NCBI GenBank assembly: GCA_902796805.1 | Contig: CADBQG010000007.1 | Coordinates: forward strand, 61,256 to 125,255 | Length of the DNA: 64,000 nucleotides | Direction of reading: 5' to 3' | DNA from: an uncultured Bacteroidota bacterium | Lineage (GTDB): Bacteria; Bacteroidota; Bacteroidia; Bacteroidales; WCHB1-69 | Shown: positions 3,139-28,574 of the stretch, piece by piece | Layout of the letters: every line of letters starts with the position of its first letter | Numbering within the stretch: position 1 is the stretch's first letter | Notes under the pieces: generated by a model | Database searches by the model: none | What the model was told of the DNA's origin: nothing | The model's input: only the letters and a program-made list of their open reading frames with translations | Translations under genes and position numbers: made by a program

Positions 3139-3204
3139 CGTTGCAACATCTTTTAAGATATTTCGTTATAAAGTAGGAATATTGTGAAAATAACTTTACA
3201 AGAT

Positions 3205-6141
3205 ATGAATAAATCGCTGAAAACCATAGTTTTATTACTGTTGAGCCTTGCCTTCTCAAGCGCGTGTGCGCAGGACATCATCATGGGGCAGGCCGCCTTG
3301 GTTAACGACGTGGAGGAGGAGGCACGTTACTTCTACGACTCCGGCGGTCACGATGGCGACTTCGACACGAGCCTCGTGGAGACCATGACCATAAAGCACG
3401 CCATGAACGCCGATTTCGTGCTTAACGTCTTTTTCGAGGACTTTGTGATGGGCCCGGGCGACACGCTCTGGATCTATGACGGCGAAAGCGCCGGCAGCCC
3501 GCTTCTCGGCGTTTACAATCTTGTAAGCTCGCCCGGCGACGTGTATGCGACGGGCAGCGCCCTCACCTTCGTGTTCAAGTCCGACAACGTCATCGATCCC
3601 GGACTCTCCTCCGGCTGGAAGGCTCGTGTGAGCGCGTACCGGCAGAACCAAAAGGATTTCAAGATCAACAATGTTGATGGAAGTACACAATACACCTGCA
3701 ACGCGAAGTTCTACGACTCTGGCGGAGCTAATGGTAATATCGCTGAAAATAACGAAAACTATTACGTAACATTTCAATCATCGGCAGGCTCGCACCTGAA
3801 GTGCGAGTTCACGCAGTTCAAGGTGAACGGGGTTATGAAAATCTATGACGGGCCTTACTATCCCAACTTTCCGGAGTTGAACGGTCGTCTTATAGGGCAG
3901 TTCTGCACCAGCACCTTGCCGGCAAACGGCAGGCCGCCGGTGCTGTTCTCCAGCACGCAGCAACTCACTTTCGTGTATGAGGGCAAGAGCGGCGATAAAC
4001 AAAAAGAAGGCTGGGCCGCAGATATAACCTGCGTGCCCGAACTTTACGTGAGCGACGACGCAAGCCCCTGCCCCAAGGTAACCAACGTGGCCGGCGGTGC
4101 CTACGCGAACAGCAACAATGGAGGAGGTGGCATAAGTGCCGAGGTTTCGGCCGACACAATCCTCTTCGACTGCTCCACTCCGGTTGTCATGCTTGAAGTT
4201 GAGATAAGCGCCACCGGCAAGTTCTCAAACGACTACACCGTGAAACAAATCCCCGAGTCGTGGAGGATGTTCGGCTATGACGAAGGAGATCTTGTTCCAG
4301 CAGAAACAGATGACAATTGGATAACTGAACAGCCTCTCCCATTTTCATTCAATTTTTTTGGAGAGACGTACGACAAGATATATCCTGGTGCTAACGGCTT
4401 GATATCATTTTCGTTTCCATCTACGGGAATGAATAGTTGTAAGTGGAAGACATCAGTTCCCCCTGCATCCCCGCCATATAGTAGTGTTCCATACAATTAC
4501 GATAATTCTCTCTACGGTGTTTATGAAGACATTTATCCAGGTTATTACATCGATGGCGGAGGCATTAGGTATAAAGTACTTGGCAGCTACCCTTGCAGGG
4601 CTTTTGTCTTCAACTACTACAACGTTGGACTGTTTAGTTGTGGAGCATCAAGTTATCCCGGTTACCAGAATTACCACAACACCTACCAGATGGTGTTGTA
4701 TGAAGGGACAAATATAATTGATGTATTCATCAAGAAAAGGGTTAACTGTCCGGAGTGGAACGAAGGACATGGTGTTGTCGGAATACAGAGTAAGAATTCG
4801 GCACAAATTCTCACAGCTCAAGGAATGGATTTCAATCAACTTTGGCAAGCCTCTGATGTTGGCTGGCGTTTCACGCCGATAACCCCATACGACGAGTTGG
4901 GCGACCTCAAGTGGTATGTGGCGCCTGCCTCCATGACAAAGAACATGCTCGACGACAGCTATATCAAATTTCACGATCCCGGTGCGAAACTCAAGAGGTT
5001 CACGGTGTCGCCCTCGGAGGACGTGAAGGTGTGGTCGAGGTACGAGTTCACCAACTCCACCGGCCAGTCGTTCACGGTGTGGGACTCCACGCTCATACTC
5101 GTGCAGATTCCGCAGACCACCACGTTGCACACATCAGGCGCGGGCGGCAGCCAGACGATATGTCCCGGCGAGCAGTGCACGCTCACCGTTACGCCCGACT
5201 CGCAGGAGTACCCCGACGTTACGCCCGTGCACTACTCCTGGAACACCGCACCCGCCGACACCAACCAGTCGGTGAACGTGGCGCCGGAGAAGACCACCAC
5301 CTACTACTGCAAGGTGACCTACAGCAACGGCTGCACCAGAGACGACAGCGTGAAGGTGGAGGTTACCGACCTCGAGCTGCCCGAGATATCGGCCACCGAC
5401 ACAACCATCTGTCTTGGCGAGAAGACGGTGCTTTCGGCCACGCACTCCACTGCCACGGAGTACAAGTGGAGCAACGGCGCCACCGGGCAGTCGATAACAG
5501 TGTCGCCGCAGGCAAACACCAGGTATAAGGTTGAAGTGGTGATGGAGGGCGGCTGCGTTGTCTCCGACACGCTCACCATAAACGTGAACCCGCTGCCGAA
5601 GCCGGCATTCATCGCCGACCCCACGGAGATATACGTCGAGAACGGCGTGGGCACGGTAACCTGCACCGACAACTCGCCCGAGCAGTACAGTTTAGTGTGG
5701 AACTTCGGCGACGTGAACTCCGCCGTCAATGAGGTGCAGGACGTGGCGACCGCCATCCACGAGTACGTGCGCGCGGGGTTCTACACTATCACGCTAACTG
5801 CCACCGACATCAACGGCTGTGTCGACTCCACGAAGAACAAGGTCTCCGTCACGGTGCCGTACTTCTTCTTCATCCCGAACGCCTTCTCGCCCAACGGCGA
5901 CGGCGACAACGAGCGATTCGCACCGAAGGGCGAGGGCGTGGACCCCGACTACTACTCTATGCAGATCTACGACCGCACCGGCACAATTGTCTTCAAGACC
6001 CGCAACCCCTACGACTACTGGGACGGCCGCGACAAGACGGGCAGGTTCTGCCCCGAGGGCGTGTATGTTTACCTCATACACCTCGTGAACCTCAACGGCG
6101 AGGAGAAGGAATACACCGGTTCGGTAACGTTGATCAGGTAG
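3205..6141 (+). CDS. Large secreted adhesin-like protein with T9SS type-B (gliding-motility CHU_C) C-terminal sorting domain
   Basis: Signal peptide MNKSLKTIVLLLLSLAFSSACAQ. CUB-like modules (YDSGG...IYDG), Ig/PKD-like repeats (NFGD...YTITLTATDINGC). C-terminus FIPNAFSPNGDGDNERF...YDRTGTIVF...WDGR. Confidence 0.8.
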   Translation: MNKSLKTIVLLLLSLAFSSACAQDIIMGQAALVNDVEEEARYFYDSGGHDGDFDTSLVETMTIKHAMNADFVLNVFFEDFVMGPGDTLWIYDGESAGSPLLGVYNLVSSPGDVYATGSALTFVFKSDNVIDPGLSSGWKARVSAYRQNQKDFKINNVDGSTQYTCNAKFYDSGGANGNIAENNENYYVTFQSSAGSHLKCEFTQFKVNGVMKIYDGPYYPNFPELNGRLIGQFCTSTLPANGRPPVLFSSTQQLTFVYEGKSGDKQKEGWAADITCVPELYVSDDASPCPKVTNVAGGAYANSNNGGGGISAEVSADTILFDCSTPVVMLEVEISATGKFSNDYTVKQIPESWRMFGYDEGDLVPAETDDNWITEQPLPFSFNFFGETYDKIYPGANGLISFSFPSTGMNSCKWKTSVPPASPPYSSVPYNYDNSLYGVYEDIYPGYYIDGGGIRYKVLGSYPCRAFVFNYYNVGLFSCGASSYPGYQNYHNTYQMVLYEGTNIIDVFIKKRVNCPEWNEGHGVVGIQSKNSAQILTAQGMDFNQLWQASDVGWRFTPITPYDELGDLKWYVAPASMTKNMLDDSYIKFHDPGAKLKRFTVSPSEDVKVWSRYEFTNSTGQSFTVWDSTLILVQIPQTTTLHTSGAGGSQTICPGEQCTLTVTPDSQEYPDVTPVHYSWNTAPADTNQSVNVAPEKTTTYYCKVTYSNGCTRDDSVKVEVTDLELPEISATDTTICLGEKTVLSATHSTATEYKWSNGATGQSITVSPQANTRYKVEVVMEGGCVVSDTLTINVNPLPKPAFIADPTEIYVENGVGTVTCTDNSPEQYSLVWNFGDVNSAVNEVQDVATAIHEYVRAGFYTITLTATDINGCVDSTKNKVSVTVPYFFFIPNAFSPNGDGDNERFAPKGEGVDPDYYSMQIYDRTGTIVFKTRNPYDYWDGRDKTGRFCPEGVYVYLIHLVNLNGEEKEYTGSVTLIR

Positions 6142-6190
6142 GATTTAGAATTTAGTATATAGTATTTAGAAATTAGAAATTAGAAATTTG
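6142..6190. repeat. Degenerate period-7 array, consensus ATTTAGA
   Basis: atttaga atttagt atatagt atttaga aattaga aattaga read directly after the stop codon. Confidence 0.7.
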
Positions 6191-6192
6191 TT

Positions 6193-6218
6193 GCGGCGCG
6201 GGAAATCGTGCCGCTTTT
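6193..6218 (+). terminator. Rho-independent terminator candidate
   Basis: GCGGCGCG-GGAAAT-CGTGCCGC stem (one G.U pair) followed by TTTTGG. Confidence 0.55.
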
Positions 6219-6321
6219 GGTTTCACGGCGTTGAGTATTGAAAGGGGGCTCCATCGGAGGAATAAAATCGTTTGGTTTTTCGCATGGAGGCAACTTCTGG
6301 TGCGTGGTTGAAACAAAGCGT

Positions 6322-6749
6322 TTTTTTTTGCTTGCAGACTTTCCGTTACTTTTTTCTTGATAAAAAAGTAACCAAAAAATCAAGCCGACATTAAAGCCCG
6401 CCCGCTCTGTCGAAAGCAAACAACAGCGGCAGAGTAGTATAAAATGCAAATGAAAAGAATGAAACCAGGCATATTGCCGCAGGCCTTTTGCATTTTATAA
6501 ACGCAAGCGCCTCTGCACGCTGTTGTAATGCTTTCGTCATTCACGGCGACACCGCCCCCTAATGTCGGCCCGTCCAGCCCGCGTGTGTGATAACTCACAA
6601 ACTCTCAAAAAGAGAGTTGCGGCTGCGCAAAAAAGAGTTGGCGGGCCGTTCAATTCGCGATACAGCCCGTCAGGGCTGAAGGATTCGGTAGCAAATGCAG
6701 TCCCCCATGTCTGGGTTACGCAGGCCGGAAAGTCTGCGCGCAAAAAAAA
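6322..6749. repeat. 428-bp element bounded by 24-nt inverted repeats, with nested hairpins (MITE-like element or structured RNA)
   Basis: Left end TTTTTTTTGCTTGCAGACTTTCCG (6322-6345) matches the reverse complement of the right end CGGAAAGTCTGCGCGCAAAAAAAA (6726-6749) at 22/24 positions. Internal hairpins at 6346-6372 and 6383-6570. Confidence 0.5.
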
Positions 6750-6834
6750 CCAAACATTTTCATACCGCAGCGAAAAAATTCCCGGGCGGCTATAAAAAAA
6801 TATCTACACACGATTGTGGATAAAGAAAAAAATG

Positions 6835-6842
6835 TATCTTTG
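6835..6842 (+). promoter_or_regulatory. Bacteroidota -7 promoter box (TATCTTTG)
   Basis: Perfect TAnnTTTG about 210 nt upstream of rpmD. It would give the distal ribosomal cluster its own promoter. Confidence 0.45.
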
Positions 6843-7052
6843 CGCACTTTTTGAAGTGGAATGTCAAAATGTCTGACAAGCGGGCATTTTGAGTCGCAAC
6901 TGACTGATTTTCACGGACTGTAATAAAATAGGGAAGGCGAGAGGCGTAGGAAATTTATGGTTTAGTTATAGGAAGATAGTTGCATTTTTGTTTCAAAAAG
7001 TGTGCTATTTTTTTTTTGATTATCAACAAGTAAAATAAAAATTTCAGAAGGG

Positions 7053-7232
7053 ATGAAAAAGATCAGAATCACACAAGTAAGAAGCGCCGTTGACAGGCCG
7101 GTACGTCAGAAGAGGTCATTGGAGGCGCTGGGATTGCGCAAGATGCACCAGACAGTGGAGCACGAGGCCACGCCTCAGATAGTGGGCATAGTTGACTCCG
7201 TGAAGCACTTGGTAAGCGTAGAGGAGTTATAA
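7053..7232 (+). CDS. rpmD: 50S ribosomal protein L30
   Basis: 59-aa ORF below the track cutoff, translated by hand: MKKIRITQVRSAVDRPVRQKRSLEALGLRKMHQTVEHEATPQIVGIVDSVKHLVSVEEL. Position is directly before rplO. Confidence 0.93.
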   Translation: MKKIRITQVRSAVDRPVRQKRSLEALGLRKMHQTVEHEATPQIVGIVDSVKHLVSVEEL

Positions 7233-7265
7233 TTCATTTAGTTAAAGAAAAACAAAGAAGAAGAT

Positions 7266-7730
7266 ATGAACTTACACAATTTAAAACCAGCAGCAGGATC
7301 AACGCACAAGGAACGCAGAATAGGCAGAGGACAGGGCTCAGGCAAGGGCGGCACGTCCACAAGGGGCCACAAGGGCGCCCAGTCTCGTTCGGGCTACAGC
7401 CGCAAGATAGGTTTCGAGGGCGGCCAGATGCCGATTTACAGGATACTGCCGAAGCGCGGTTTCAAGAACATCAACAGGGTTTCGTACAACGCCATCAATG
7501 TGAGCACGCTCCAGCAGTTGGCCGAGAAGAAGAATGTTGAGAAGATAGACCGCGACGTCCTCATAGCCAACGGTCTGGCCAAGAAAAACGACCTTATAGC
7601 CGTTCTGGCCAAGGGCGAGCTCACCGCCAAGGTTCACGTTGTTGCCGACAAATACTCGGCGAAGGCTAAGGAAATGATAGAGAAGTGCGGCGGCACCGCT
7701 GAGCTCGTGAAGGCCCAGGCCGCTGAATAA
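7266..7730 (+). CDS. rplO: 50S ribosomal protein L15
   Basis: MNLHNLKPAAGSTHKERRIGRGQGSGKGGTSTRGHKG, conserved operon position. Confidence 0.97.
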   Translation: MNLHNLKPAAGSTHKERRIGRGQGSGKGGTSTRGHKGAQSRSGYSRKIGFEGGQMPIYRILPKRGFKNINRVSYNAINVSTLQQLAEKKNVEKIDRDVLIANGLAKKNDLIAVLAKGELTAKVHVVADKYSAKAKEMIEKCGGTAELVKAQAAE

Positions 7731-15780: not shown

Positions 15781-15855
15781 GCCGAGTTCGTCTAGTCGGC
15801 CTAGGACGCAAGGTTTTCATCCTTGAAATCAGGGGTTCGAATCCCCTACTCGGTA
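15781..15855 (+). tRNA. tRNA-Glu (anticodon TTC)
   Basis: Cloverleaf folded by hand: anticodon stem CAAGG/CCTTG, loop TTTTCAT, T-arm AGGGG-TTCGAAT-CCCCT. The acceptor stem has a G1.U72 wobble. Confidence 0.85.
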
Positions 15856-21984: not shown

Positions 21985-22057
21985 AGCGGAAAACGGGGCT
22001 CGAACCCGCCACCTACAGCTTGGAAGGCTGTCGCTCTACCAAATGAGCTACTTCCGC
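21985..22057 (-). tRNA. tRNA-Gly (anticodon TCC)
   Basis: Reverse complement GCGGAAGTAGCTCATTTGGTAGAGCGACAGCCTTCCAAGCTGTAGGTGGCGGGTTCGAGCCCCGTTTTCCGCT folds as a cloverleaf. Confidence 0.9.
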
Positions 22058-22067
22058 GGATAATTTG

Positions 22068-22149
22068 TGGGAGAGGAAGGATTCGAACCTCCGAAGGCTT
22101 AGCCAGCAGATTTACAGTCTGTCCCATTTGACCGCTCTGGAACTCTCCC
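22068..22149 (-). tRNA. tRNA-Tyr (anticodon GTA), long variable arm
   Basis: Reverse complement GGGAGAGTTCCAGAGCGGTCAAATGGGACAGACTGTAAATCTG... with acceptor GGGAGAG/CTCTCCC. Confidence 0.9.
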
Positions 22150-22162
22150 ATCATTACAAGCG

Positions 22163-22235
22163 AGCCGATAGTCGGACTTGAACCAACGACCGGCTGATTA
22201 CAAATCAGCTGCTCTACCAACTGAGCTATATCGGC
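22163..22235 (-). tRNA. tRNA-Thr (anticodon TGT)
   Basis: Reverse complement GCCGATATAGCTCAGTTGGTAGAGCAGCTGATTTGTAATCAGCCGGTCGTTGGTTCAAGTCCGACTATCGGCT. Confidence 0.9.
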
Positions 22236-22283: not shown

Positions 22284-22473
22284 GTATTTTTTTTAAATCA
22301 TGGCACTTTTTCTACAGATTTTTTTATTTTTTTTGTAACTTATTGAAAATCATTTATGTATTTTTGACTCAAATCTTCCAACAACTCTTTTTTGTATGCT
22401 TAACTATTATGTTTGAAGATTCTTTTTGGGAGAAAAGCGCCTTTGGATTTAGAATTTAGAACTTAGAGCTTAG

Positions 22474-24202: not shown

Positions 24203-24895
24203 ATGCTCACCCGCGACAAGCAGATACGTTCTTACTTCAGGAACATATTCGGATTCAGGATTAGCAACGTGGAGTTATACAAGACTGCTCTTCTCCACAA
24301 GTCTACCAACCAGTCCACAACAATAGGGTCGCGTAACAACAACGAGCGTCTCGAATTCCTCGGCGACGCCGTGCTTGGCGCTATAGTGGCCGACTTCCTC
24401 TGCCACAAGTATCCCACCGAATCGGAGGGCGTTCTCACGCAGATGCGGTCAAAAATGGTTAACCGGCAGCGCCTGAACGAGCTGGCGAGGAAAATAGGAC
24501 TGCCTGAAATGGTATCCGCCCACGGACTGTCGTCGGCGCAGAACGTGAGCGGAAACGCTTTCGAGGCCGTTGTAGGAGCCATATATATGGACAAAGGATA
24601 CAGAAAAACGGCCAGGATAATAATAAAGAGCATCTTCAATGTGCACTACGACATTGATGAGATATTCGCAGAAGACCGCGACTATAAGAGCAGGCTCATA
24701 ATCTGGGGTCAGCACAACCGCAAGCATGTCTCTTTCGTCCACGAGCTGTTTCACGAGGGACGACAGGAACTTTTCAGGGCAATTGCAGAGGTTGACGACA
24801 TTGTGGTTGCCGAGGGCGTCAGCACTTCGGTGAAGAGGGCGGAGCAACGCGCGGCCGAGATTGCACTGTCTATGCTCGATGTGGCTGAATTTTGA
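24203..24895 (+). CDS. rnc: Ribonuclease III
   Basis: Signature NERLEFLGDAVL plus a C-terminal dsRBD. The ATG abuts the fabF stop. Confidence 0.93.
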   Translation: MLTRDKQIRSYFRNIFGFRISNVELYKTALLHKSTNQSTTIGSRNNNERLEFLGDAVLGAIVADFLCHKYPTESEGVLTQMRSKMVNRQRLNELARKIGLPEMVSAHGLSSAQNVSGNAFEAVVGAIYMDKGYRKTARIIIKSIFNVHYDIDEIFAEDRDYKSRLIIWGQHNRKHVSFVHELFHEGRQELFRAIAEVDDIVVAEGVSTSVKRAEQRAAEIALSMLDVAEF

Positions 24896-28379: not shown

Positions 28380-28560
28380 CTCCCGAAGCGATGACATCGG
28401 CTCAGCGGCAGGTTTTCTGACTCGTTCCGGGCACGGCGTCTTCCCATCGAATGACAGTGACTTTCAGGCCGTCCCATGGTGTGGAACTCACAGCAGCGGG
28501 TACTGTACAGGATTCGCACCTGTTTCCCTCTCAGGACTCAAATCGTCCTTCACCGCTTTG
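28380..28560 (-). promoter_or_regulatory. Cobalamin (B12) riboswitch aptamer
   Basis: Minus strand reads GAGAGGGAAACAGGTGCGAATCCTGTACAGTACCCGCTGCTGTGAG ... GTCACTGTCATTCGATGGGAAGACG ... GAGTCAGAAAACCTGCCG. The last segment is the B12 box (plus-strand 28407-28422). All hallmark blocks are in the correct order. Confidence 0.88.
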
Positions 28561-28566
28561 CGGCTG

Positions 28567-28574
28567 CAAAATTA
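28567..28574 (-). promoter_or_regulatory. Bacteroidota -7 promoter box (TAATTTTG on minus strand)
   Basis: caaaatta on the plus strand, immediately upstream of the riboswitch. Confidence 0.45.

Follow-up and report, generated by a model that had tools for sequence, protein, structure and literature searches.

A palindromic element beside the rpmD-rplO-secY operon of a rumen Bacteroidales, probably a MITE-like member of a repeat family that crosses phylum boundaries

MITEs (miniature inverted-repeat transposable elements) and foldback repeats such as Correia, ERIC and MITEPsy1 are small, non-coding units with terminal inverted repeats and strong hairpins, which lie between genes, are often co-transcribed, are multi-copy in some genomes and are patchily distributed among strains and species. 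The IS200/IS605-derived palindrome-associated elements (PATEs) are centred on hairpins and are active as single-stranded DNA, their cleavage site being recognised by pairing with an internal guide. In IS608, this guide is found at the foot of the hairpin and not in its loop. The IS91 family counts CAAG among its terminus/target tetranucleotides and includes miniature derivatives mobilised in trans (PMC3189936), while IS91-type transposition proceeds via a single-stranded DNA intermediate (PMC5714925). The present work deals with an odd palindromic stretch, lying between positions 6322 and 6749 of a 64-kb segment of DNA, hereafter the window, from an uncultured rumen Bacteroidales. This element is probably a copy of a non-coding, non-autonomous MITE-like element of ~430-510 bp, with terminal repeats of ~40 nt, belonging to an apparently undescribed multi-phylum family; if so, the palindrome would be resolved as a mobile-element relic. 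A preliminary description had left the choice between a MITE-like element and a structured RNA. The former is the better supported, because the element is small and non-coding, ends in terminal repeats, has no copy in the sister species and shares its core with a family which is multi-copy elsewhere, on plasmids and viral contigs. On the other side, a single copy was seen in the window, and neither a target-site duplication nor a transposase gene was found there.

The outer arms, described at first as reverse complements at 22 of 24 positions, were recovered with the same value at 6322-6345 and 6726-6749; no dinucleotide-preserving shuffle of 6142-7052 equalled it in 200 attempts, the best reaching 20. 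The perfect 11-bp AT-rich hairpin with a CTTGAT loop is likewise present, as hairpin 1 (H1), which runs from G6345 to C6372 and has its 6-nt loop at 6356-6361. The long imperfect hairpin built from three paired blocks (hairpin 2) also exists, although some of the block coordinates first given for it were off by one: it spans 6384-6569, with the arms GCCGACATTA (6384-6393) and TAATGTCGGC (6560-6569), and contains the block TATAAAATGCAAA (6438-6450), whose partner lies at 6487-6499. RNA folding, which had been proposed as a check, gave energies far better than those of shuffled sequences for the 428 nt on both strands, namely -171.2 kcal/mol for the plus strand (z -9.5) and -187.2 kcal/mol for the minus strand (z -10.0), with 0/100 shuffles as good in either case. 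In addition, the inverted repeat extends beyond the arms, 6259-6280 pairing with 6745-6766. Because one strain (L115) is devoid of the ~49-nt block which separates the two left-hand pieces, the terminal repeat amounts to ~40 nt, and the element therefore spans ~6259-6766, that is, 428 bp from arm end to arm end and ~508 bp including the outer repeat. When the end of L115 is aligned with the window, CGTT direct repeats are seen at the borders of this deletion. The absence of a convincing open reading frame (ORF), also stated at the outset, was borne out, as no ORF of the element region had a Pfam match. A 37-aa minus-strand ORF with the hydrophobic core MQKACGNMPGFILFICILYYSAAVVCFRQSGRALMSA was observed inside the long hairpin (6493-6380); it was considered as a type I toxin, a reading which was rejected because the ORF probably results from T-rich sequence and is not constant among strains in its N-terminal residues.

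The relationship of this element with others was revealed by its core. In a distant blastn search of the spacer against plasmid records, the match was limited to H1 and the next 12 nt, and the whole spacer gave no match when searched in the same way against phages. With H1 and its linker as the query, 78 records of the plasmid collection were retrieved at a permissive E limit of 10, the lower-ranked of which (e.g. inside mecB and ABC-transporter genes) appear to be chance matches. Many occurrences of the core per replicon were noted in Ilyobacter (15 places), Persicobacter (4-8 per replicon), Fulvitalea, Aureibacter and Parabacteroides, and the complete Ilyobacter unit occupies 26 places in one 962-kb replicon. 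Furthermore, an exact-pattern scan located an identical 40-nt core (H1 and linker) in two IMG/VR contigs, L098 and L099, the latter copy sitting within a phage structural-gene cluster. The family thus assembled has members in Ilyobacter, Persicobacter, Aureibacter, Chondrinema, Parabacteroides and the two viral contigs, and occurs on plasmids, chromids and viral contigs. In all true members, conservation ends exactly after ...TCAAG, and what comes next is a long imperfect hairpin whose sequence is unrelated from one member to another. The unit of the family consists of a 28-bp hairpin with the loop CTTGAT, a short A-rich linker ending in ATCAAG and a long hairpin in which the structure is kept and the sequence varies. 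The repeat family, which crosses phylum boundaries, can be searched for by a compact signature, namely GTTAC-T(n)-CTTGAN-A(n)-GTAAC-CAAAA-NTCAAG with a long hairpin after it.

An alignment of 12 members showed that the two apical pairs of the H1 stem covary. Moreover, base 6 of the loop hexamer covaries with base 1 of the linker hexamer (CTTGAT/ATCAAG, CTTGAA/TTCAAG, CTTGAC/GTCAAG), so that this variable pair is found in three Watson-Crick types, with one exception; the covariation score of the 12-member alignment was 0.249 compared with 0.067 for shuffled alignments, and none of 500 shuffles scored as high. Homologs and covariation had been named as a check on the initial description, and the covarying 12-member family contradicts the idea of a merely decayed sequence. 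The layout of an Ilyobacter member (L092) equals that of the window: arm, H1, long hairpin, ~180 nt and arm, with 22-nt inverted arms abutting H1. By inspection, no target-site duplication was seen around it. Two further loci, Ilyobacter L093 and P. distasonis L095, hold two units in inverted orientation with H1 outward. Neither a search of Rfam with the family relatives, which gave no match, nor a full-text literature search with the core sequence, which gave irrelevant matches only, led to a described family. As a separate observation, the two inverted complete units of P. distasonis L095 (1201-1760) bracket a gene for a 24-aa hydrophobic 'smalltalk' peptide, and the H1 module is found in three paralogous P. 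distasonis loci (L095, L113, L114) which combine HU, smalltalk and N-acetylmuramoyl-L-alanine amidase.

Closer to the window, the distribution is narrow. The closest species representatives are rumen metagenome-assembled genomes (MAGs) of sheep, yak and buffalo, with SecY identities of 88-95%. The element was found, with identities of 96-99%, only in the species of the window, in four full copies of 97-98.6% identity and in partial Logan contigs, the loci carrying it including L001-L003 and L103. Contigs with the left junction were gathered by searching with the full-length upstream protein and its cluster members, as a search with the C-terminal part gave only identities of 68% or less. Thirteen related species are without the element and keep the adjacent promoter/leader (6794-7052), while sister species carry different inserts, also bounded by inverted repeats, at the equivalent position (L012 and L016). 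This spacer serves as a landing site for small elements. The insert of L012 (4532-5017) holds a frameshifted gene for a four-helix-bundle protein of the 23S-rRNA-intervening-sequence type (PF05635, E 1e-17), flanked by perfect 27-nt inverted repeats made of AATTGATAATTGATAATTGATAATGGA. That of L016 (4459-4952) is an unrelated element of ~500 nt, with 20-nt terminal inverted repeats, nested 40-nt inverted repeats and a fold z of -12.5.

Several results weigh against a mobile element. The counting of copies by BLASTN, suggested in the preliminary description, gave a single one in the 64-kb window, which is the part of its own genome that was scanned, and both self-BLAST and a covariance-model scan revealed no further copy there. 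With the covariance model R1, ~870 kb from the surroundings of the ribosomal operons in 80 other Bacteroidales were scanned as well, and no copy appeared. The search for target-site duplications, suggested at the same time, disclosed by inspection no direct repeat flanking 6259/6766 or 6322/6749, which is weak evidence at such AT-rich ends. A clean empty site was not found either, the spacers of the 13 related species not being alignable, and among the ~40 ORFs of the window there was no transposase, Rep, HUH, recombinase or Rep_1 gene. Unlike the known MITEs and foldback repeats, the element is seen once in the window, shows no target-site duplication and has no known parent insertion sequence; and what its family conserves is the internal 28-bp hairpin with the linker, not the termini, the sequence of the long hairpin being free.

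As regards variation among strains, none was found in 6332-6477. In the long hairpin, five of the six strain-variable sites are unpaired (p = 0.016), and the changes in the right-hand domain and the right arm are uncompensated. Because of these uncompensated changes, the arms do not resemble a maintained RNA helix or a recombinase site. Seven contigs that come in from the H1 side break off at nearly the same place (L005, L100, L102, L105, L106, L107 and L115): six, from six samples, end at 6392, and the seventh at 6393. The Logan contigs from the other side begin at 6516-6577, and none spans the long hairpin. We suspect that the shared stop at 6392 is a hairpin-related effect of sequencing or assembly, or else a fixed branch of the assembly graph; a genuine branching of the sequence is a further candidate. 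In practice, short-read assemblies break at the long hairpin, and MAGs are fragmented at this locus.

A mechanism may be put forward tentatively on the basis of sequence resemblance, although it is less likely than not, in which the unit would function as single-stranded DNA and an HUH (rolling-circle) nuclease provided in trans would move or copy it. The hypothesis was drawn because the hairpin region resembles the nick region of pC194 and because the relatives carry a loop like that of a single-strand origin. The H1 loop with the next base reads CTTGATA (6356-6362), and CTTG↓ATA is what we take to be the nick sequence of the phiX174/pC194/pUB110 group. Around this motif, the plus strand of the window and the pC194 minimal origin (sequence from PMC7072734) are identical at 27/34 positions (z 5.3; 0/300 shuffles as high). 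In pC194, a hairpin with GTAAC/GTTAC stems lies just 3' of the nick motif, and the element, like the pC194/pUB110 (Rep_1) origins, has its CTTGATA in a T-rich and then A-rich context followed by GTAAC. Another likeness is the strand-specific long imperfect hairpin which adjoins it in the family, and TGAGCGTAGCGA, the loop of the palindrome at the pC194 origin, agrees with the long-hairpin loops of L092, L093 and L095 at 12/12, 12/12 and 13/14 positions. About as doubtful is the extension to the family as a whole, whose members would be Rep-less rolling-circle origin cassettes, of a class not recognised before, with the site of the nick hairpin set by the covarying hexamer, spread by HUH enzymes in trans. 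Such a cassette would comprise the nick hairpin CTTG↓AT and a hairpin like a single-strand origin, spreading in the manner of a MITE across chromosomes, chromids, plasmids and phages. Were the rolling-circle reading correct, the family would exemplify, in bacteria, non-autonomous elements reduced to an origin, which move as single-stranded DNA and whose cleavage site is programmable, a matter bearing on horizontal transfer and on the development of HUH-enzyme tools.

The rolling-circle comparison is weakened on several sides. The nick-motif match with pC194 is a short, AT-rich one, each of the two resemblances to pC194 falls on a different strand of the unit, and the long hairpin of the window itself has no TAGCG(A/T) loop. 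Moreover, and unlike the pC194/pUB110 origins, the element has no rep gene adjoining it, is chromosomal and bounded by inverted repeats, and is dispersed as a repeat. With IS91 and IS801 it would share non-autonomous fragments mobilised in trans, CAAG among the terminus tetranucleotides and the absence of target duplication, but the IS91 family and rolling-circle replicons have no long terminal inverted repeats, and no IS91-type transposase was found among the window ORFs. The PATEs, in turn, offer a parallel for the covarying CTTGAN/NTCAAG in their internal guide, but, unlike the element, they are without terminal inverted repeats, and a TnpA gene was not seen here. Apart from the family proper, a 9-kb plasmid of Limosilactobacillus reuteri (p53608_2, L108:2490-2660) was observed to carry four tandem hairpins with stems like GTTACTTTTT/AAAAAGTAAC, different loops and a CAAA tail, placed between the replication-initiator and CopG/MobA genes; they possibly form an H1-related array serving as origin or transfer origin.

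The strand on which the unit is best folded bears on these readings. In the window, the long hairpin has an energy of -70.6 kcal/mol and no G·U pair on the plus strand, compared with -80.2 kcal/mol and six G·U pairs on the minus strand. The latter is the preferred strand of the family, in the order long hairpin, CTTGAN, TTTTGG, H1. Over ten long hairpins, G·U pairs numbered 26 on one strand vs 45 on the preferred one (p = 0.03), a bias which was clear in 6/10 hairpins and absent or reversed in 4/10. As for the gene context, eight of the ten units examined stand upstream of a gene on the preferred strand, and several of these have a co-oriented gene on either side, e.g. cas7d-cas5d (L091), the phage structural cluster (L099), L092 and L095. 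Convergence with a neighbour was seen for the unit of the window and for one unit of P. distasonis. The G·U bias and the orientation therefore indicate selection on a single-stranded form, with RNA and single-stranded DNA not being distinguished, and they fit a role at the RNA level equally well, which counts against the DNA mechanism, as does the uneven bias.

The corresponding alternative is a structured RNA made from the minus strand, with the long hairpin, the CUUGAU linker and an H1 loop AUCAAG pairing with that linker, which would affect neighbouring transcripts in cis (stability, processing or insulation) or act as a small RNA, in the fashion of an ERIC- or Correia-like repeat. To the energies and G·U pairs of the minus strand, with the same trend in L091, L092, L098 and L099, and to the sense orientation of most units can be added that the loop-linker covariation implies pairing within a single strand, and that the window has an RNase III gene (24203-24895). 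Even so, we regard it as unlikely. The Rfam scan proposed for the element returned nothing at gathering or permissive thresholds (best E 0.36, for unrelated snoRNA/miRNA models), and 6322-6749 contains no Bacteroidota-type promoter TAnnTTTG on either strand. The preferred strand here is convergent with the upstream gene and leads into its 3' end, and the genes downstream of the family members share no function. In addition, an 11-bp stem whose whole 6-nt loop pairs 6 nt away would probably form no classical pseudoknot. Finally, the sharing of an identical 40-nt core by unrelated organisms, and the 26 copies of a single replicon, point to mobility and not to a host regulator.

Less probable still is an invertible DNA switch, in which a site-specific recombinase would flip the ~380 bp between the 24-nt arms and so change what faces rpmD-rplO-secY. 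The segment between inverted repeats is of a size typical of Bacteroidales invertons (100-750 bp), and gut Bacteroidales are rich in them (PMC7641763). One Logan contig (L005) does show the junction that inversion predicts, the reverse complement of 6392..6323 being fused to 6729-7300, so that H1 adjoins the opposite flank. It carries the left-arm variant GCAAGC, which puts any crossover at or outside the A/T run, and two substitutions lengthen its H1 to 16 bp. Nevertheless, the junction may equally be the right end of a symmetric two-unit element, like those of L093 and L095, and it is the only altered one among nine distinct right-junction contigs, the other eight and all seven left-junction contigs reaching H1 having the standard arrangement. 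Unlike invertons, moreover, the element has no internal promoter consensus and no recombinase within the 64 kb, although a distant master recombinase is conceivable, its arms bear uncompensated substitutions in other strains, and they belong to a dispersed repeat family; the operon, for its part, is served by a separate promoter outside the element (6835-6842), conserved in relatives. As to the remaining explanation, that of decayed, functionless sequence without relatives, whose symmetry would be accidental or the relic of a local duplication-inversion, it is very improbable. The single copy in the window, the failure of two interior 24-mers to match in an exact scan of JGI metagenome contigs and the uncompensated changes of the right domain and arm would agree with it, but core relatives with covariation occur in several phyla, the fold z is about -10 and 6332-6477 is free of strain variation. 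Two other candidates were rejected. A retron would fit the repeats (as a1/a2) and the hairpin (as a long msd), but no reverse transcriptase adjoins the window element or any family member examined. The 11-6-11 layout of H1 also recalls a chromosomal dif site, a reading discarded because the dif sites of Bacteroidetes are mostly predicted with the Proteobacteria profile (14/19 strains, PMC3025954).

The MITE-like element thus preferred is made up of the parts collected in Table 1. Its right-hand domain may be a degenerate second unit; a distant blastn search gave no homologue of 6570-6725 elsewhere, the matches being limited to the H1 core.

Table 1. Parts of the element and their positions in the window
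Feature	Positions	Strand	Remarks
Left terminal inverted repeat, outer segment GGAATAAAATCGTTTGGTTTTT	6259-6280		82% pairing with 6745-6766; abuts the 24-nt arm in strain L115
Indel block in left terminal repeat	6281-6320		kept in the window and most strains; ~49 nt missing in L115
Left 24-nt arm TTTTTTTTGCTTGCAGACTTTCCG	6322-6345		22/24 complementary to 6726-6749; 0/200 shuffles
H1, family-defining 28-bp hairpin: GTTACTTTTTT / CTTGAT / AAAAAAGTAAC	6345-6372		covariance model 69.7 bits
Linker CAAAAAATCAAG	6373-6384		ends in the hexamer ATCAAG (6379-6384), reverse complement of the H1 loop
Long imperfect hairpin 2	6384-6569	-	counterpart of the variable long hairpin after H1 in all family members
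Right-hand domain, several short hairpins	6570-6725		most strain-variable part: 14 variable sites in 156 nt
Right 24-nt arm CGGAAAGTCTGCGCGCAAAAAAAA	6726-6749		complementary to the left arm; uncompensated substitutions in other strains at 6728 and 6746
Right terminal inverted repeat, outer segment AAAAACCAAACATTTTCATACC	6745-6766		pairs with 6259-6280

With respect to its setting, the element is most likely a passenger at the locus, lying between the terminator of the upstream gene and the promoter of rpmD-rplO-secY, and would act at most as a structural insulator. The upstream gene (3184-6141) encodes a 985-aa PKD/CHU_C type IX-secreted protein and has, at 6193-6214, a hairpin resembling a terminator behind it. 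On the downstream side, rpmD, rplO, secY, map, infA and more genes are preceded by a leader of ~200 nt and a promoter of the Bacteroidota type, TATCTTTG (6835-6842); at least 13 related species share this conserved promoter and leader (6794-7052), with no conservation to their left. The element had been placed at a break of ribosomal-operon synteny, and this location stands, but the link is incidental. In fact, rpmD, with its own conserved promoter and leader, is detached from the ribosomal-protein genes that usually lie upstream of it (rpsE/S5 being normally the last of them) in all related species examined, where the preceding genes are likewise unrelated; in a more distant genome (L030), the ORFs directly upstream match L6, L18 and S5 by size alone. 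Since all of these species are split and only one has the element, the split is clade-wide and predates it, and the element did not cause the division of the ribosomal-protein operon.

Some further observations were made on the flanks. Invariant blocks occur in the leader, as does a hairpin, ATAGTTGCATTTTT..AAAAAGTGTGCTAT (6976-7007), after which a run of 9-10 U stands ~45 nt before the start codon, an attenuator-like arrangement; the 5' segment of the leader, 6842-6855, is complementary to the 3' arm of the terminator. An antiterminator pairing found no covariation in a crude alignment, and no Rfam model matched the leader; 6835-7052 is a candidate for a new ribosomal-protein leader. On the other flank, the PKD/CHU_C protein is 86-88% identical between the window and L001-L003, strains in which L30 and L15 are 100% identical and the adjacent spacer 97-99%; this type IX-secreted surface protein is fast-evolving or recombining. 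An AT-rich short tandem repeat, TAGGATTTAGAATTTAGTATA / TAGTATTTAGAAATTAGAAAT, occupies 6139-6180, starting in the last codons of the upstream gene, whose stop ends at 6141, and runs similar to ATTTAGAAATTAGAAAT occur near 22447 and 36881. Elsewhere in the window there are four tRNA genes (15781-15855 and 21985-22235) and, on the minus strand at 28390-28572, a cobalamin riboswitch (86 bits), which precedes a pair of genes for a DUF5074 / secretion-tail combination.

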